A stretch of DNA of 64,000 nucleotides from Escherichia coli (GTDB taxonomy: Bacteria; Pseudomonadota; Gammaproteobacteria; Enterobacterales; Enterobacteriaceae), in the NCBI RefSeq assembly GCF_965641715.1, contig NZ_OZ282453.1; one strand, given 5' to 3'. The notes under the pieces were generated by a model. That model was not told the origin of the DNA, ran no database searches, and was given only the letters and a program-made list of their open reading frames with translations. A program made the position numbers and the translations under genes. The stretch's first letter is position 1; every line of letters begins with the position of its first letter. Positions 26,968 to 52,351 of this stretch are shown one piece after another.

Positions 26968-27238
26968 TCAGTAAGGCAAAAATTTTTGAAACATTACCGC
27001 GCGCACGAACAACCAGCACGCAGAACACCAGATTAATCATGACGACCAGCCAGTTACCGGGAAGGATTGTGCCGCAGAGAAAGGCAAGTGGCGGAAGTGC
27101 ATATACCGTCATCAGCAGCCAGGCCAGCAATGACACCAGCGGCTTATGTCTGGAATCACGACGACGATAAAAAAATAGCGTTGGCACGATAAACGAGCAC
27201 AACGCTACATTCAGCAATCCGGGAAGATTATTTGCCAT
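26960..27238 (-). CDS. Small membrane protein of the lysis cassette (holin/antiholin-like)
   Basis: About 92 aa, 2-3 predicted TM segments; translationally coupled between the holin and the endolysin. Confidence 0.5.
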   Translation of the reverse strand: MANNLPGLLNVALCSFIVPTLFFYRRRDSRHKPLVSLLAWLLMTVYALPPLAFLCGTILPGNWLVVMINLVFCVLVVRARGNVSKIFALLSG

Positions 27239-27617
27239 TACCACCACCTCCCCGTTGACGGGAGAACAGACCGGATACCAGCGATGTAATATCCTGCTGA
27301 TGGATGAATGACAGGACCTTTACTGAAACCACCGACACCAGTACTGCACACAACGCATCAACGGAAGCGCTGTCAAACCCAATACGCTCCGCCATATACC
27401 CCGCCACACCACGGGCCCCAAGAACACCAACAATAAAGGACACCAAGAAATGTGCAGCCACACGCCAGGCTGAAAGCGTCTGCGGCATTGTTGCCACAAA
27501 CAGCGCACCGGCAAAGGCACCAAACACAATCCCGAAATCCGTTCCGGTGAACAGCCCGAATACCGTCGCCCCGCCGAGCGCCGCGGCCGTACCGGAACCG
27601 GACAAGGGTTCAGACAT
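27228..27617 (-). CDS. Putative holin (start at MSEPLSGSG after AGGAG)
   Basis: 129 aa, Gly/Ala-rich TM helices, C-terminal charged tail; directly upstream of the endolysin. Confidence 0.6.
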   Translation of the reverse strand: MSEPLSGSGTAAALGGATVFGLFTGTDFGIVFGAFAGALFVATMPQTLSAWRVAAHFLVSFIVGVLGARGVAGYMAERIGFDSASVDALCAVLVSVVSVKVLSFIHQQDITSLVSGLFSRQRGGGGNGK

Positions 27618-27863
27618 ACCTTTTTTCTCCTGTAAATAAAAAAGAGCCACCAGCGGCCCACCAAAAAACACCCCGTCAAAGACACCTGCACCCACAGATG
27701 CCTTTTGTGTGGTGTTATTCAGATTTGCGCAGTAAAGGCCAGAGAACAACCATCACCATCGCTACCAGCACGCCATCAGCCAGAACCGACATCAGCCGTC
27801 CGGCAAAATCTACTGCCACTACCAGAAACAGCAGGATGGCAGCCAGCACAAGACGTGCACTTT

Positions 27864-28289
27864 TCACAGATACTGCTCCAGTGGTAACTGAAGCGCCTGT
27901 GCAATTTTCTTGAGCTGCGCTTCTTCATCCGGACTAATGCTATCCTGGTCAGCGATATCCAGACAGAGGCACAGTACGTCAACCGCCTCTGTTGTCCCTG
28001 CCACGTCAGCCAGCTGACGGAGGGCTTCAGCATTGGCAGAACGCGGGGATGCTTCATAACGGGCGCGGATATTGGCGCTCATCTGGGCAATCTCACCTGA
28101 GAACAGCGCAAAGGCCGGAAGTGCTGCAATGGTTTTCTCCAGCACTGCGATTTCTTTCGCGTCGCAGGTACCGTCAGCATATGCAATGGAATATGCGCCC
28201 CAGACGGTCGCTTCCACCGCATCGCGATTTTCCATCTTCTTCACCTCAACAATCGCCTTGCAGGTTTTCTTTTTGAAAATACCAAACAT
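27864..28289 (-). CDS. Hypothetical late-region protein (possible TerB-like fold)
   Basis: 141-aa ORF from MFGIFKKKTC with RBS; acidic helical protein; TerB assignment is a guess from composition only. Confidence 0.4.
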   Translation of the reverse strand: MFGIFKKKTCKAIVEVKKMENRDAVEATVWGAYSIAYADGTCDAKEIAVLEKTIAALPAFALFSGEIAQMSANIRARYEASPRSANAEALRQLADVAGTTEAVDVLCLCLDIADQDSISPDEEAQLKKIAQALQLPLEQYL

Positions 28290-28462
28290 CGTGACGTTTC
28301 CTTTTAGTGGGAGAGCCTCGCCCCGGGATGAGCAGCCCACAGAGAAAGTCACACCGACCATCCCGTAAGCTCCCCCCCCCTGAAAGGCTCTGTGGTTTTT
28401 GATGTGCACCGGACGTGGCGCGGATATGAAAAAAGCTCGCAGTAGCGGGCCTGGCTACAGGC

Positions 28463-28488
28463 AAAAAAATACCCGTCCGGAGACGGGC
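28463..28488 (-). terminator. Rho-independent terminator (minus strand)
   Basis: Minus strand GCCCGTCTCCGGACGGG hairpin followed by TATTTTTTT. Confidence 0.5.
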
Positions 28489-28533
28489 TAACACATTCAA
28501 CATGTAAGAGTGGAACAGCGTTTATTTTAAGTA

Positions 28534-28620
28534 TGGTCGCCGCCAGAATGAGTCGTCAGATTGCAACGCAATTCTGGCAAATCGCAGGCACCAAAACAGG
28601 CAACGACTCATTCTGGCAAC
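28534..28620. repeat. 15-bp perfect inverted repeat (GCCAGAATGAGTCGT / ACGACTCATTCTGGC) with nested alternative pairing and direct repeats, followed by a T-run
   Basis: Read directly: arms at 28534-28548 and 28595-28609; ATTCTGGCA and GGCAACGAC each occur twice. Confidence 0.7.
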
Positions 28621-28773
28621 GACTTTTTTCCAATAACGCAACTTCATGAACAAAAAAAAGAACAGCACTGTATCCGCTATTGCAGAATGGAGAACAATAA
28701 AAAACCTGAACTATTATTCAACTCGGAAAACCGCCAGTGCTGTAAAAGTCCGTCAGAAATAAAACAATGAAGT

Positions 28774-28850
28774 TGTGGAGAACAGGAATCGAACCTGCAT
28801 CGCCAACCCAGAAGGCTGCGGTAATAGCTACTATACGATACCTGAATAAA
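28774..28850 (-). tRNA. tRNA-like sequence, probably a 3' fragment or pseudo-tRNA (canonical T-arm, no acceptor stem found)
   Basis: Minus strand GCAGGTTCGATTCCTGT T-arm preceded by CCTTCTGG; no complementary 5' acceptor strand could be found by eye. Confidence 0.3.
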
Positions 28851-29358
28851 GAGCAGGCCTCCGTAACCACAATAATGATACTGATAACAGACCTTCAATA
28901 TGATTGAACGGAAGCCTACAATGAACCGCAAGACAGCGGGGAACACCGCTGTGAACATAAACTTGCTGTCTTCCGGGTCGGGAGTAATATTACCGATAAT
29001 TCATATGACATCAAAAACTAATTAGTTTTCAGATTTAAAAATATGTATAAATCTGTATCAATTACATACAGTTTATGTTATTCCATCCAGAATTCTGATT
29101 TCGCACAGGAGATTGCGTAAAAACTAACACAAATATAAACGATTTGGGAACACACTGATTCAGTTGTCGCAATAAATAACAGGAAACACTCCGGGAATAA
29201 CAGATCGCAAGACTTACATCAGCAGGAGTTTTTGCAACATTTAACGTTAATTGTATCGTTGATAGAAAATCTATGACGCAATATGGTGAACTAACAGAGC
29301 CTGACGAATATCCCAATTACGCCGAGCTAATAGCGCTGCCAGCTAAACTTGCATGGAA

Positions 29359-29435
29359 TGGTCCGCCACCGGGTGCTCGAACCTCGCACAATCAACTTAG
29401 AAGGCTGATGCTCTATCCAGATGAGCTGGTGGCGG
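29359..29435 (-). tRNA. tRNA-Arg (anticodon UCU)-like, phage-encoded; T-stem imperfect
   Basis: Acceptor stem CCGCCAC/GTGGCGG, D-arm GCTC-ATCTGGATA-GAGC, anticodon loop CTTCTAA, 3' ACCA; two mismatches in the T-stem. Confidence 0.55.
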
Positions 29436-29437
29436 AA

Positions 29438-29513
29438 TGGTGGCCCTTGCTGGATTTGAACCAGCGACCTGGCGATTATGAGTCGCTCGCTCTAACCACT
29501 GAGCTAAAGGGCC
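29438..29513 (-). tRNA. ileZ: tRNA-Ile2 (anticodon CAU, ileX/ileZ-like), phage-encoded
   Basis: Minus strand GGCCCTTTAGCTCAGTGGTTAGAGCGAGCGACTCATAATCGCCAGGTCGCTGGTTCAAATCCAGCAAGGGCCACCA is near-identical to recalled E. coli tRNA-Ile2. Confidence 0.85.
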
Positions 29514-29553
29514 GGGCGCAGGATAATAACGGTACGTAACTAATTCTGCAAGT

Positions 29554-30612
29554 TCATCCGTTCTGACTGACTAAATCCTGTACTTCCCTGACCGTCTGCT
29601 CAAAACGCTCAGTCTCCAGCTCAACACCAATCACACGACGTCCCTGCGCCATCGCTGCTTTGACTGTCGAACCTGACCCCATGAAGAAATCTGCAACCAG
29701 GTCTCCCGGACGGCTGCTTGCGCTGATTATCTGCTGCAACATTTCTGCCGGTTTTTCGCACGGGTGCTTCCCGGGATAGTACTGCACCGGTTTATGCGTC
29801 CACACATCGGTGTACGGCACCTGCACAGTCACACCGAAATACCGCCGCAAATTTTTATATTCACTCAGCAGTTCCGTATACTGCCGGTTCAGTTCACTGT
29901 ATGTGCTGACCAGTTGGTAATGTGGCTTTTCCAGTTCTCCGCACTGGTGCTTCTCTTCTGCCACTCGGGCAAACAGTGCCTGTAATTTCAGATAATCGCT
30001 TTCATTCGGTAGCTGCCACTGACTGGCACTGAACCAGTGCGACACCATGTTTTTCTTTCCTGTAGCATCCACAATCTGTTTTGCCGTAATCCCCAGGGCC
30101 GCACGCGCATCACAAAAGTAAGAAATCAGCGGGGCCATCACATGCTGTTTCAGAGCCCTGCCCTTTGCCGCATAGCCATCATTTTTTAGCTGATATGGCC
30201 CCTGATAATGTCCGGCAAACAGAATGCGCTCTGTTGCCGGAAAATACGCCCGCAGGCTTTCCTTGTTGCACCCGTTCCAACGTCCGGACGGCTTCGCCCA
30301 GATGATATGGTTAAGCACGTTGAAACGTTCACGCATCATGATCTCAATATCAGATGCCAGGCGATGTCCACAGAACAGGTAAAGGCTTCCGGCAGGTTTC
30401 AACACCCGCCAGAACTGGGCCAGACAGTGGTCCAGCCACTTAAGGTAACCTTCGTCCCCTTTCCACTGATTGTCCCAGCCGTTGGGTTTCACCTTGAAGT
30501 ACGGCGGATCGGTAACAATCAGGTCAATGGAATCATCAGGCAGGGACTGAATAAAATGCAGGCAATCAGCGTTGATCAAATCAACACTGTTTATTTTTAC
30601 AGTATTTTTCAT
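29554..30612 (-). CDS. Orphan DNA N6-adenine methyltransferase (DPPY motif)
   Basis: IDLIVTDPPYF catalytic motif and C-terminal FFMGSGST AdoMet motif; no adjacent restriction enzyme gene. Confidence 0.85.
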   Translation of the reverse strand: MKNTVKINSVDLINADCLHFIQSLPDDSIDLIVTDPPYFKVKPNGWDNQWKGDEGYLKWLDHCLAQFWRVLKPAGSLYLFCGHRLASDIEIMMRERFNVLNHIIWAKPSGRWNGCNKESLRAYFPATERILFAGHYQGPYQLKNDGYAAKGRALKQHVMAPLISYFCDARAALGITAKQIVDATGKKNMVSHWFSASQWQLPNESDYLKLQALFARVAEEKHQCGELEKPHYQLVSTYSELNRQYTELLSEYKNLRRYFGVTVQVPYTDVWTHKPVQYYPGKHPCEKPAEMLQQIISASSRPGDLVADFFMGSGSTVKAAMAQGRRVIGVELETERFEQTVREVQDLVSQNG

Positions 30613-30762
30613 GGATCAGTAAGCGTAACTCTGGTAGGCTCACTCTGCTTTTGCGCTAAAGCAGTGGGCCGTGGTTCGCTTGTGACCAGTAAGCATGAGC
30701 GAATGGCTGGCAGGTGCTACCAACACCCACCAGCCGCCCATTTTCACAGCAGGAAACCGCCA

Positions 30763-30990
30763 TTACTGGCAGCGTCTGAATTTATTCCCGTACCCGCCGT
30801 TATCCTTCGCCAGACCCGCCAGAACTAACTGAGTCAGTATTAACTGGCACTGGGCTTCGCTTACTCCGGTAGTTCTCGTCATCATGCGTGGCGTTACCCA
30901 CTTGTCAGCAGGTAAGAAATGAAGGACTGCGGCGGCGGTTTCTGTCATATCTTGCTGTTTTAGCATGTCTTTTTCCCTTCTGGTTAACAT
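30763..30990 (-). CDS. Hypothetical small protein (possible winged-helix DNA-binding)
   Basis: 75-aa ORF between the rexA-like promoter region and the methyltransferase. Confidence 0.35.
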   Translation of the reverse strand: MLTRREKDMLKQQDMTETAAAVLHFLPADKWVTPRMMTRTTGVSEAQCQLILTQLVLAGLAKDNGGYGNKFRRCQ

Positions 30991-31244
30991 GACATACCAA
31001 TAACTCTTGTCTAAAAAGCCAGCAAGATAAAAAGTCAGTATTCACGACCACCAGCGTGTTTACTGTACTGCACCAGGTTTACAGGTACAAAAAACCGCTC
31101 GACGGCGGGTTTAAGCTGTGTGGCGAAGTAACCACTCTTAACAGATTAAGATAAAATTTGCGGACCGCGGTAATTTTTTTTGCTAAATTAAAGCCATATA
31201 AAAAATAAGATCCATAAGAAATTATTAGTATACTAAGGTTTAAC

Positions 31245-32186
31245 ATGGCTACTATTGCGCAATCAAAGAAACAAAAAAAACTTAAAATTGGTTTTTACAC
31301 CAGCAGTTCTGGGACTATCCGCAGCCATTCAGTTGCTAAGCAAGCAATTGAAAATCTGTATAATACTTGCGTAACCGTTACGAATAATCATTTTGATACC
31401 ATCTATAGAAATAAAAAGTTAAAAATAGCTTTTATAAATAAAGATACAAAAGCTAAATATTTCTTCGGCTACATGTCATGCTCACGAGAAGAGTATCTCC
31501 TTCCTTATATTGGTGATGAACACTGGAATGAGCACAACATACCACTAGATGATAAAAAATACATAGTCGAAAGAACCTATTTTTTATATTATTACGATAG
31601 TGATATTTTAATATTAACTCAAAATCATCTTGGGCCGAAAGAATCGGATTTAGCTTATCTGCTTTACAGCCAGAGTGGTAATCCTGGAAATAACTTTTCA
31701 TTCCAAGCCATCTGGAAAAAAGAGAGCGTCAAAGAGCTACTTGAAACAGGAAGTACTTTGAGAAGTTGTGATATTGTCCTGGCTGCTCCCAGGAACTTTG
31801 ATGCAACAAATTACCAGCTAAATAGTTCATTTTCTAAGGAACTGGTAAATATGATGGTAGGGCTGGGTGGAACACGTCTCAAGTTAAATCTAAGGGGACG
31901 TGCATCAGGGAGAGTAAAAGTCAAAGGTTATTTATCAGATCTCGTTAAGGATGGTATTAAAGAACTCCTTGAAAAAATGCCGGGAATTGTAAAAAAAGCG
32001 GCAGTAACACAGCCCAAAAATACCGTTGAACAAAGTCTTCTTGATCAGGTACTCATTTCAGAAAAAAACATATATACCGTTAATGGTTATGGCACTGATA
32101 GTGATGTTCTGCAAGCCATGATTTCTGCTAAAATTGATAACAATGAATACCTTAAGCAATACGATATCAGCAAAAAGAAGGTATAG
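31245..32186 (+). CDS. RexA-like protein (remote homolog of lambda RexA)
   Basis: 313 aa, AT-rich; local matches to recalled lambda RexA (KIGFYTSS vs KNGFYATY; LGPKESDLAYLL vs FGPTTSDLTDFL); 3 nt upstream of the rexB-like gene. Confidence 0.6.
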   Translation: MATIAQSKKQKKLKIGFYTSSSGTIRSHSVAKQAIENLYNTCVTVTNNHFDTIYRNKKLKIAFINKDTKAKYFFGYMSCSREEYLLPYIGDEHWNEHNIPLDDKKYIVERTYFLYYYDSDILILTQNHLGPKESDLAYLLYSQSGNPGNNFSFQAIWKKESVKELLETGSTLRSCDIVLAAPRNFDATNYQLNSSFSKELVNMMVGLGGTRLKLNLRGRASGRVKVKGYLSDLVKDGIKELLEKMPGIVKKAAVTQPKNTVEQSLLDQVLISEKNIYTVNGYGTDSDVLQAMISAKIDNNEYLKQYDISKKKV

Positions 32187-32189
32187 GAT

Positions 32190-32633
32190 ATGTTATTGAA
32201 ATACTTAAGAAACCTGATTGTAAGTGTTTTTTGCACCTTGTTCCTACTGAGGTATATCCCTCAGATGGGGCATGCTGACATACTTACAGCCTCCGGGGTT
32301 ATTTCAACTGTATCCGGTATTTTATTTGGTTTTATTTTAGCCACAATATCAATTTTTAGTGCTGCTAGCGAAAACTCAAATGGAATAATAAAAGCATTAA
32401 AAAACAACAACATACTTCAAGTTATTATTGTAAATCTATTAACCGCAGGTGCATCTTTAATTACGGCATGCGTTATTGCTTTGATAGCAATGTTTGCCAA
32501 TGAAAAGACATTGTTACATGGAGAAAAAATAGAATTTATTTTAATTATCGAATCTTTATCTCTTCTTATCATTTCAGTAATAACTTTTGCCTTTACATGG
32601 AGAAAAGTAAACTGGATACTCCCCCACATTTAA
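32190..32633 (+). CDS. RexB-like 4-TM membrane protein
   Basis: 147 aa; N-terminal LIVSVFCTLFLLRYIPQ vs recalled lambda RexB VIVSICYLLFRHYIPG; multi-pass TM, similar length (lambda RexB is 144 aa). Confidence 0.65.
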   Translation: MLLKYLRNLIVSVFCTLFLLRYIPQMGHADILTASGVISTVSGILFGFILATISIFSAASENSNGIIKALKNNNILQVIIVNLLTAGASLITACVIALIAMFANEKTLLHGEKIEFILIIESLSLLIISVITFAFTWRKVNWILPHI

Positions 32634-32656
32634 AAAGGGCAGAAATGCCCTTTTTT

Positions 32657-33019
32657 CTACTCCATTTCAAGTTTAACATCCAGCATTGAAAGGCATCCAT
32701 CAATAAACCCTTCAGCCATCTGTATCTCTATACGTATCAATTTCTCATCTTTTTTGCGAGCTCTTGCAAGCTTTCTTTTCGAGATGCCATACAGGTAATG
32801 GGCCACAATCAAAGAATGCTCGTACGGTTTTCGCTTTTTAAGAAGAGCAAGACAACCTTCAATAATTAATGCATCACTATCTGAACAAGCCTGACGTGTT
32901 TTGCTTGTATAGGGAAGAAGCCCTTTAAACCCAGCAGCTATAGGAGAATAGTCTACTCCTGAACTATCACTCGCCGCCCATGCTCCCCAACGATCCAGAA
33001 CCATTTGAATATCACGCAT
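32657..33019 (-). CDS. Antitermination protein Q (QuuD-like family)
   Basis: MRDIQMVLDRWGAWAA...AEGFIDGCLSMLDVKLEME resembles DLP12 QuuD; position after rusA/DUF968. Confidence 0.75.
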   Translation of the reverse strand: MRDIQMVLDRWGAWAASDSSGVDYSPIAAGFKGLLPYTSKTRQACSDSDALIIEGCLALLKKRKPYEHSLIVAHYLYGISKRKLARARKKDEKLIRIEIQMAEGFIDGCLSMLDVKLEME

Positions 33020-33036
33020 CAACTTTCTCCACAAAA

Positions 33037-34032
33037 TCAGGCCAGCACGCCAATTGCCAGCGCACGATCGATAAAACGAAATATCAGCTCCAGCTGGGAG
33101 CCATACCTCTCTTCAAATGCCACGGTATCCGCATGCAGCTCGTCGTGATGCTTTCTGCACAAAGGCAACACAAAAAGGTCATGCGCTTTTGTACCCATTC
33201 CACACTGACCGTGGCCTATCAGGTGGTGGGGATCATCAGCGGGCTTTCCACAACATGCACACGGCTGTGTCTTAACCCAGCGCGTGTACTTTTCATTAAC
33301 CCAGCGGCGACGTTTTGGGCGTAACATAAAAGACTCCGGCGACTCCGGATCCACTTTCAGCGCCAGCACCTTTTTCGCTTTATCCTGGATGATGCTGGTG
33401 GCAGGAACCGAAGGCACAAGGTCACTTTCCCGGGTGACAGACGGCACAACAGGCTTCGGTAATCTCAGTGCCTTACGGGCTGCACTTTCCGGTAAGGCAT
33501 CCGCCAGATCATTACGAATCAGCCACCAGCACAGTTCCGGCATTGTCACAACGTGACTGTCATCAAAACCGAGATCCCGACGCACAACAGACAACACCCA
33601 GCGGGCACAGTTATCCGTTGCCATTGATTCCAGCCGTTCCGTGAACTGATCGCGCAGCTGGTTATCGCAGTGCCAGCACAGACGGATTGCGCCCGGAGCG
33701 TGTCGCATTGTGGTCATGTTCTCGCTGTGCCAGTCGGAATGAGGCCACTGGCAGCCTTTTTCACGAAGTAACCAGCTTTCAAGACATTCCACGCCACCAG
33801 CACGACGGATCACTGCCTCATTGCGGAACACGGCCCGAACGGCAGGATCATCCGCCAGCGGTTGTGATGCCGCCGGAACGGCACCACTGGCGAAAGATGA
33901 ATAACGTTCCGGCTCAGGCTCCAGCAGGACACGCCCCTGCATAAACAGGGGCATCAACTCTGAACCTGGCCTGAACAATACGATCCCCATACGCGGGGCA
34001 ATTTCAGGGGTCAGTAGTGCTCTCACGGTCAC
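33037..34032 (-). CDS. DUF968-domain protein (YdfU-like) with C-terminal Cys/His cluster
   Basis: CACCGKPADDPHHLIGHG...CRKHHDELH motif; typical nin-region gene of lambdoid prophages. Confidence 0.6.
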   Translation of the reverse strand: MTVRALLTPEIAPRMGIVLFRPGSELMPLFMQGRVLLEPEPERYSSFASGAVPAASQPLADDPAVRAVFRNEAVIRRAGGVECLESWLLREKGCQWPHSDWHSENMTTMRHAPGAIRLCWHCDNQLRDQFTERLESMATDNCARWVLSVVRRDLGFDDSHVVTMPELCWWLIRNDLADALPESAARKALRLPKPVVPSVTRESDLVPSVPATSIIQDKAKKVLALKVDPESPESFMLRPKRRRWVNEKYTRWVKTQPCACCGKPADDPHHLIGHGQCGMGTKAHDLFVLPLCRKHHDELHADTVAFEERYGSQLELIFRFIDRALAIGVLA

Positions 34033-52028: not shown

Positions 52029-52115
52029 GCGAAGGTGGCGGAATTGGTAGACGCGCTAGCTTCAGGTGTTAGTGTCCTTACGGACGTGGGGGTTCAAGTC
52101 CCCCCCCTCGCACCA
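52029..52115 (+). tRNA. leuQ: tRNA-Leu (CAG)
   Basis: GCGAAGGTGGCGGAATTGGTAGACGCG...GGTTCAAGTCCCCCCCCTCGCACCA, 87 nt, first of three tandem copies. Confidence 0.95.
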
Positions 52116-52143
52116 AAAACCACGTTGATATTGCTCGCACTGG

Positions 52144-52230
52144 GCGAAGGTGGCGGAATTGGTAGACGCGCTAGCTTCAGGTGTTAGTGTTCTTACGGAC
52201 GTGGGGGTTCAAGTCCCCCCCCTCGCACCA
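52144..52230 (+). tRNA. leuP: tRNA-Leu (CAG)
   Basis: Second tandem copy, one nucleotide different in the variable arm. Confidence 0.95.
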
Positions 52231-52264
52231 AACGAGGCGATATCAAAAAAAGTAAGATGACTGT

Positions 52265-52351
52265 GCGAAGGTGGCGGAATTGGTAGACGCGCTAGCTTCA
52301 GGTGTTAGTGTCCTTACGGACGTGGGGGTTCAAGTCCCCCCCCTCGCACCA
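52265..52351 (+). tRNA. leuV: tRNA-Leu (CAG)
   Basis: Third tandem copy. Confidence 0.95.

Follow-up and report, generated by a model that had tools for sequence, protein, structure and literature searches.

The region from 30600 to 33100 of a 64-kb stretch of Escherichia coli chromosome (contig NZ_OZ282453.1 of RefSeq assembly GCF_965641715.1; hereafter the window, in whose numbering all coordinates are given) carries the late-regulatory junction of a lambdoid prophage, at which the gene for the antiterminator Q and the predicted late promoter PR′ are parted by an insert of ~1.5 kb. Q is encoded on the minus strand within a maximal open reading frame (ORF) at 32657–33034 and belongs to the Q21/933W family (PF06530, E = 5.2e-52, full-length model coverage), with a weak phmmer match to the Q21 structures 6JNX and 6P18. 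The real start of the gene is probably ATG 33019, giving a protein of 120 aa, and not TTG 33034, because a GGAGA Shine–Dalgarno sequence lies 7 nt upstream of the ATG and the same start is annotated in phage cdtI and used by homologues. The insert fills the interval between the Q stop codon at 32657 and the edge of an A-tract at 31181 and contains two genes antisense to Q: a gene on the plus strand for a 313-aa DUF6731 protein with a RexA-like predicted fold (31245–32186; PF20505, E = 1.7e-10) and, beginning 4 bp past its stop codon, a plus-strand gene for a 147-aa membrane protein with four hydrophobic segments, which is a putative RexB-like partner (32190–32633; lambda RexB has 144 aa). An AT-rich plus-strand segment at 31182–31244, read from the sequence as the leader and promoter region of this cassette, lies back-to-back with PR′. 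Both the ORF list and the sequence confirm the starting point of an earlier note on this DNA, which had reported that Q and the rexB-like gene converge, with stops at 32657 and 32633 and only 23 bp between them (32634–32656). The whole region matches the complete genome of the lambdoid Enterobacteria phage cdtI (AB285204) at 99.8% identity and is found at a coverage of at least 80% in 24 of 5426 complete E. coli genomes.

The earlier note left two options for late transcription: a PR′ inside or beyond the rexAB-like insert, or late transcripts that read antisense across the cassette. We place PR′ beyond the insert, on the minus strand at ~31143–31181 with a predicted start near 31136, and give this layout together with the mechanism proposed below a probability of about 0.8. 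In insert-less relatives with the same Q subfamily (1720a-02 and PPyecE_EH1910), the counterpart of window positions 31175–31087 follows immediately after the Q stop codon, and across such relatives, including the IMG/VR loci L021 and L072, the PR′ block begins 5–8 bp past that stop. Phages that encode a different Q of 250 aa (SfV, Ayreon and 720R4) share homology with the window only at 31111 and below, and the hairpin at 31087–31112 thereby marks the homology boundary with phages of other Q types; these phages have their own lambda-like PR′, which in SfV reads TTGCAT-N17-TAAGAT ... AACGAT just upstream of the hairpin. Since phages with the 250-aa Q share only the segment from the hairpin onward and insert-less phages with the same Q have the block at the Q stop, the block at 31112–31181 travels with the type of Q and not with the late genes, as would be expected of PR′ and qut. 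We also scanned IMG/VR with the Q protein and collected the 80 loci most similar to the window Q, a sample of close relatives with duplicates included; the PR′ block is present in the orientation of Q in 77 of them, at a distance from Q of 5–6 bp in two and 818–2211 bp downstream in the other 75. With a block that abuts the Q stop in insert-less relatives and aligns with the mapped PR′ of Sakai Sp5 described below, the first option stands. The second is not supported for PR′ transcripts: these would begin downstream of the cassette and head away from it, so late transcription from this promoter is not expected to be antisense over the cassette.

Alignment of 50 distinct versions of the block reveals a common order of elements consisting of an A-rich run, yTAnCGCGGTCCGCA, a variable 10-base stretch, TAnnnT, GTTAAGAGTGGTTACTTCG and a hairpin with a T-run. 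On the minus strand of the window, these elements comprise an UP-element-like A8 tract at 31174–31181 (approximately −45 to −38 of PR′; an A-rich run is kept here in the 50 distinct relatives), the 11-mer CGCGGTCCGCA at 31159–31169 (approximately −33 to −23; conserved in the 50 distinct block sequences), which is a candidate Q-binding element (QBE), a −10 hexamer TAATCT of the pattern TAnnnT at 31143–31148, and the predicted start and initial transcribed region GTTAAGAGTGGTTACTTCGCC at 31122–31142. Neither the 11-mer nor the TAAGAGTGGTTAC core has a second copy anywhere in the 64-kb window. The −10 hexamer aligns with the −10 elements of H-19B/Sp5, DLP12 and PhiR40_1 directly upstream of G(T/A)TAAGAGTGG; its counterpart in DLP12 and PhiR40_1 is TATGCT, with TTTACG or TTTACA 16 bp upstream, and the H-19B/Sakai Sp5 site reads TTTACG-N16-TATCAT-GATAAGAGTGG, with the segment GATAAGAGTGGTTACATTGCC homologous to the window start region. 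The homologous site in the record of Ss-VASD is labelled ‘putative late promoter PR′’.

Comparison with Sp5 anchors the block to an experimentally defined promoter. For Sp5, differential RNA sequencing (dRNA-seq) and Term-seq have placed the PR′ start 258 nt from the mapped 3′ end of its terminated RNA (PMC7547250). In the Sp5 sequence, an A stands 7 nt past TATCAT, and its distance to the final U of the tR′ U-tract is exactly 258 nt; the offset between Sakai genome versions is taken here from matching that 258-nt distance itself. The −10 element and the GTTAAGAGTGGTTAC segment of the window align with those of H-19B/Sp5, making the start region homologous to a mapped PR′, and because A31136 is homologous to the Sp5 A that fits the 258-nt RNA, we infer this base to be +1. 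The conserved segment from +1 to +15 also resembles the lambda PR′ start region AACGATGGGTTAATTCGC. Separately, the predicted initial transcript contains a small stem, GUGG-N8-CCAC (31121–31135, minus strand), whose pairs are almost invariant in relatives and change on one side only, as in one relative with GTGA...TCAC; this variation is too small to judge function. The pause-hexamer candidates AAGAGT, TACTTC and CAGCTT were set aside, none being both canonical and conserved.

The position of the 11-mer matches that of the QBE of phage 21, which consists of two direct repeats located between −35 and −10 (PMC6606751). CGCGGTCCGCA is nearly invariant in the subfamily of the window Q (Q proteins 77–100% identical to it), whereas the QuuD/H-19B subfamily carries (A/T)(T/A)CGTAAAAA in the same interval and shares the downstream start segment. 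The window Q is 48–49% identical to QuuD and H-19B Q, with divergence concentrated at residues ~62–105, and the QBE-contacting residues reported for Q21 (S93 to R127 and R113; PMC6606751) fall in the corresponding part of the protein, which points to residues ~62–105 as the DNA-recognising region. Because protein and site change in parallel between the two subfamilies, we take CGCGGTCCGCA as the candidate QBE of this promoter.

The first hairpin downstream of PR′ (31087–31112, minus strand) was identified in a terminator scan as a tR′-like intrinsic terminator. When 33 distinct sequences are folded together with RNAalifold, the stem is recovered and shows compensatory changes (GC at pair 48/61 in 16 sequences and CG in 10; CG at pair 49/60 in 13 and GC in 11); these changes, together with annotation of the hairpin as a terminator in SfV and Ayreon, identify it as a real conserved structure. 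A weak terminator-like hairpin with a T-run had already been noticed on the minus strand at 31087–31110 and offered as a tR′ analogue. The hairpin exists and is weak (−8.5 kcal/mol), and as a conserved, covarying stem placed after PR′ it fits that proposal, but its strength as a terminator is uncertain, given its weakness and the read-through of its Sp5 homologue.

Several observations weigh against this assignment of PR′. The window promoter has no recognisable −35 hexamer and its −10 element matches 3/6 positions, which is why a consensus promoter scan of 28400–33200 missed it; that scan returned as many matches as in shuffled sequence and is uninformative for either option. A clean sigma-dependent pause hexamer is also lacking in the window, which has TACTTC where H-19B has TACATT (+7 to +12), the final T being missing. 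The first hairpin has only four G-C pairs and a z of −0.2, and the homologous hairpin of Sp5 appears to be passed without Q, because the RNA that accumulates ends at the second terminator, at +258. Finally, the proportion of 75/77 loci with a distant block is no unbiased frequency, since the sample consists of the 80 loci closest to the window Q, and forms with no cargo between Q and PR′ occur commonly in Stx phages.

Read-through by the 258-nt RNA of Sp5 (locus L096, 934–1203) raises the possibility that the conserved first hairpin is leaky or serves some other purpose. The terminator scan found no equivalent of the second terminator in the window before the methylase gene. As the first hairpin is weak, is passed without Q in Sp5 and is not backed by a second terminator, some constitutive transcription of the small ORF, methylase and tRNA genes that follow is possible. 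The arrangement of PR′ and a nearby hairpin also predicts a short terminated RNA similar to lambda 6S RNA and StxS, with a 5′ part homologous to the StxS-L 5′ end. In contrast to StxS, the window RNA would be ~45–50 nt if the first hairpin terminates, and the 74-nt Hfq-binding 3′ part of StxS is absent.

On the other side of the insert, the gap between the converging stop codons leaves no room for a late promoter directly 3′ of Q, a point on which the earlier note was right, for the 23 bp are wholly occupied by a hairpin. This hairpin, AAAAAGGGCA-GAAA-TGCCCTTTTT, spans the gap plus two bases of the plus-strand stop codon (32632–32656) and is predicted from its folding energy and the U-runs on both sides to be a bidirectional intrinsic terminator (−13.4 kcal/mol on the plus strand, z = −3.9, with 0/200 shuffles as good; −13.0 kcal/mol on the minus strand). 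A strong hairpin right after the Q stop recurs in nearly every class of cargo found at the Q/PR′ junction, which suggests selection for insulation and not for read-through.

We propose that an accessory cassette comprising its own promoter region, the RexA-like gene, the four-transmembrane gene and a bidirectional terminator was inserted, in reversed orientation, exactly into the interval from the Q stop to the upstream border of PR′. After induction, Q would be made from the early rightward transcript, diffuse, and load onto RNA polymerase at PR′ ~1.5 kb away (31136–31169), and the Q-modified polymerase would pass the hairpin at 31087–31112 and continue into the small ORF, the methylase and tRNA genes, and the lysis and structural genes. 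Late transcription would run leftward in window coordinates, away from the cassette. The gap hairpin would stop cassette mRNA before it enters Q antisense and would stop unmodified Q-sense transcription before it enters the cassette antisense, and in the lysogen the cassette would be expressed as an insulated moron. Q proteins diffuse and work in trans on templates bearing PR′/qut; because of this action in trans, distance from Q is no obstacle and late transcription need not cross the cassette.

This split layout has a classical precedent in DLP12 (qsr′) of E. coli K-12, in which an antisense accessory gene likewise separates a PF06530 Q from the same PR′ start block and hairpin, in the order quuD, antisense nmpC::IS5, TTTACG-N16-TATGCT-GTTAAGAGTGGTTACTTCG, hairpin and essD. 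DLP12 differs in its cargo, the IS5-disrupted porin gene nmpC in place of a RexAB-like pair, and in its Q subfamily and spacer element. Phage 434B (OL657227; L094/L097), a complete genome, is annotated as a hybrid carrying the DLP12 segment quuD-nmpC::IS5-PR′-holin, with Q ~2.9 kb from PR′. The classical qsr′ substitution phages are lambda hybrids in which Q, S and R of DLP12 reportedly function. The DLP12/434B layout shows that Q can serve a distant PR′. The Q/PR′ pair of the window is a member of a known family, and with this precedent the layout that had seemed puzzling is explained and is of modest interest in itself: the late genes would be driven by a normal Q/PR′ pair split by an insert, and no silencing of the cassette by late antisense transcription is expected.

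By contrast, late transcripts that start where Q ends or within its 3′ end, as in H-19B, would run antisense through the cassette and silence it during lytic growth, as the second option of the earlier note had it. In H-19B and Ss-VASD the PR′ −35 element does lie inside the Q 3′ end, but the conserved PR′ elements occur once each in the window, at 31128–31169, with none near 32600–32700, where the 23-bp gap is wholly terminator. Minus-strand promoter-like matches inside the cassette number 10, against 9.5 expected from shuffled sequence, and the Q-type-specific block lies beyond the cassette in 75/75 cargo-bearing relatives, leaving this reading with very little probability. Antisense transcription could also arise with PR′ as proposed, if early rightward transcription, for example in an antitermination-modified form, escapes the hairpin at 32632–32656 and dampens the RexAB-like system in the lytic cycle. 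The geometry permits this, with Q-sense transcripts pointing into the cassette, and lambdoid early transcripts are often N-modified (PMC8065619). We judge such escape unlikely, since the gap hairpin is predicted to be a strong terminator in the Q-sense direction and strong hairpins recur there in nearly all cargo classes; in addition, the ORFs to the left of cI in the early region of cdtI, which is near-identical, gave no N-like Pfam match, and the early region yielded no boxA-like sequence, neither of which proves absence.

The weak promoter features noted above admit a further explanation, in which PR′ of this Q subfamily is not constitutive and Q is needed for initiation as well as antitermination, which would explain why a weak first hairpin is tolerated. 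Such a role is suggested by the GC-rich 11-mer that occupies the −35 position (−33 to −23) and by a Q family with a sigma-region-4-like fold, as described for Q21 (bioRxiv 10.1101/651190), and it would suit the missing −35 hexamer, the 3/6 match of the −10 element and the weak hairpin. However, all characterised Q proteins act on a constitutive PR′ via a paused complex, the A-tract could compensate as an UP element, and the sister subfamily has a good −35 element (TTTACG/TTTACA); we consider Q-dependent initiation improbable. Finally, the window is a chromosomal prophage and some relatives carry frameshifted cargo (L014 and L075), as might be seen if the locus were defective-prophage debris in which the insertion uncoupled Q from the late genes. 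Against this stand the presence of the same region, at 99.8% identity, in the complete cdtI genome, the occurrence of cargo at the same junction in phages deposited as isolates (PhiR40_1 and the 434B hybrid), and the PR′ elements, all of which are intact and conserved. Phage cdtI is also said to have been described as inducible, by Asakura et al. in 2007, and we find decay of the locus hard to credit.

The window promoter resembles those of H-19B, Sakai Sp5/Sp15 and phage 21 in pairing a PF06530 Q with a subfamily-specific element, in the window the candidate QBE, located between −35 and −10, and those of H-19B/Sp5 in having a homologous start and initial transcribed segment followed by an intrinsic-terminator hairpin. 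It differs in lying 1.5 kb from Q, and not abutting or overlapping the Q 3′ end as in the textbook layout, a difference that is positional and not mechanistic. The elements themselves also differ, in that phage 21 has TGAGCA repeats and H-19B a CGTAAAAA spacer where the window has CGCGGTCCGCA, and the window PR′ lacks both a −35 hexamer and the StxS-defining second terminator found at +258 in Sp5. For annotation and engineering of Stx, Cdt and other lambdoid prophages, PR′ should be sought by its start block (TAnnnT-GTTAAGAGTGGTTAC) and not by its distance from Q.

We compared the cassette proteins with lambda RexA and RexB by structure, sequence and family models. An AlphaFold2 model of the DUF6731 protein built with 26 homologues (pLDDT 81.6, pTM 0.76) retrieves lambda RexA (8TWQ; E = 1e-7, probability 1.00) as the best Protein Data Bank match in a fold search, followed by RdgC; the global TM-score against 8TWQ is only 0.35–0.38, which might reflect two domains hinged differently. 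BLASTP gives a non-significant match of the DUF6731 protein to RexA (E = 0.25), whose best segment aligns the DUF6731 invariant residues G130, P131, D135 and L140 to RexA GPTTSDL..FL, and a marginal N-terminal match of the 147-aa protein to RexB (E = 0.012 over 49 aa). Neither cassette protein matches the Pfam RexA or RexB models, the 147-aa protein is without any Pfam match, and PADLOC, Rex models included, returns no match for either. The cassette shares with lambda RexAB a two-gene operon of a soluble protein of ~300 aa followed by a four-transmembrane protein of ~145 aa, carried by a temperate phage outside the lytic operons; it differs from lambda RexAB in that it is not beside cI and not in the PRM transcript. 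The description ‘rexAB-like’ used before therefore holds for predicted fold and architecture and not at the level of the Pfam and PADLOC Rex family models, and we regard it as a fair label in that sense, with an abortive-infection function putative. Lambda Rex keeps out superinfecting phages, for example T4 rII, through membrane depolarisation; to our knowledge, its mechanism is itself still unsettled.

The DUF6731/four-transmembrane pair stays together in a Vibrio chromosome, where it is not part of a prophage, and also occurs in a Yersinia prophage at the same Q junction (loci L098/L099, 4001–5478, and L100, 4001–5403). In the Vibrio and Yersinia loci, DUF6731 is always paired with a four-transmembrane protein of ~150 aa. 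Our literature search found no paper on DUF6731, which does not prove that none exists; DUF6731 and its membrane partner constitute a testable RexAB-like system.

Among the relatives, the Q/PR′ junction hosts a wide range of genes other than this pair. The 75 cargo-bearing loci contain ~30 classes of cargo between the Q stop and the PR′ block, 0.8–2.2 kb in length with a GC content of 31–43% and almost all antisense to Q. These include four variants of the DUF6731/transmembrane pair, KAP NTPases (PADLOC PDC-S20 and PDC-S49), a TIR-transmembrane protein, an NYN nuclease, an HNH protein (PDC-M68A), a three-gene PDC-S42 set, a ClpP-like SDH-type protease, a NucC-like DUF6602 protein and an AbiC-like protein. 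Interchangeable and diverse cargo thus occupies one position between conserved flanks, as in a hotspot, and appears enriched in known or candidate defence genes, whose defence roles here are putative. The junction resembles the defence hotspots of P2-like phages and P4-like satellites (PMC9122126) in its fixed position and swappable low-GC cargo, much of it defence-like, and differs in phage family and site and in being bounded by a regulator gene and the promoter on which that regulator acts. A paper on pR′ diversity in Stx phages places pR′ directly downstream of Q (PMC6266700), and our literature search found no description of the junction as a cargo hotspot, which does not prove that none exists. 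The junction offers an easily recognised source of candidate anti-phage genes, and we present the hotspot and the RexAB-like pair as leads with no claim of priority. Cargo without any match, among the IMG/VR loci L009–L088, encodes proteins of 339 aa (L027), 379 and 142 aa (L026), 372 and 170 aa (L074), 271 aa (L080), 267 aa (L083) and 356 aa (L057).

More tentatively, the few bp that separate the Q stop from the upstream border of PR′ in Q21/933W-family lambdoid prophages may be a dedicated, insulated docking site for counter-oriented defence cargo, in which each cargo brings a bidirectional terminator on the Q side and a promoter back-to-back with PR′, and which would hold many uncharacterised candidate systems including the widespread DUF6731/four-transmembrane pair. 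Since the candidate QBE lies only tens of bp from the cargo promoter, Q binding could conceivably couple cargo expression to the lytic switch. Many cargo classes (L042, L045, L057 and others), read in the cargo sense, share a (G/A)TGATT-N17-TAAATT-like pattern that adjoins the candidate QBE just beyond the A-tract. We considered the same pattern as the promoter of the window cassette and rejected it, as the window cassette, compared at 31182–31200, does not fit the spacing.

Around the junction, the genes on the Q side run KilA-N, a DUF968/YdfU-like gene and Q, and on the far side of the insert a small ORF is followed by a DNA methyltransferase gene and tRNA genes, an order also found in Stx phages such as 1720a-02 and Sp5. 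All three far-side elements lie on the minus strand. The small ORF (30763–30990; 75 aa at most), first in the predicted late transcript, is taken from the ORF list and is annotated in cdtI, PhiR40_1, SfV and 1720a-02. The methyltransferase gene (29554–30612; PF01555, E = 2.5e-43) is followed by tRNA-Met(CAT) and tRNA-Arg(TCT) at 29359–29513, identified by ARAGORN and Rfam and resembling the tRNA cluster of Stx phages (Sp5 ileZ/argN/argO). A search of 27000–34000 with Rfam (E ≤ 1) returned tRNAs only, with no match at the segment from PR′ to the hairpin. Further into the moron region of the late operon, Rfam gives a sub-threshold tRNA-like match at 28781–28839, and ARAGORN predicts a tRNA-Arg(TCT) of unusual length, 92 nt, at 27767–27858, beside an unannotated ORF of 181 aa (27864–28409). 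Just outside the cdtI-homologous region lie three tandem tRNA-Leu(CAG) genes (52029–52351), which may represent host flank or the neighbourhood of the prophage attachment site.

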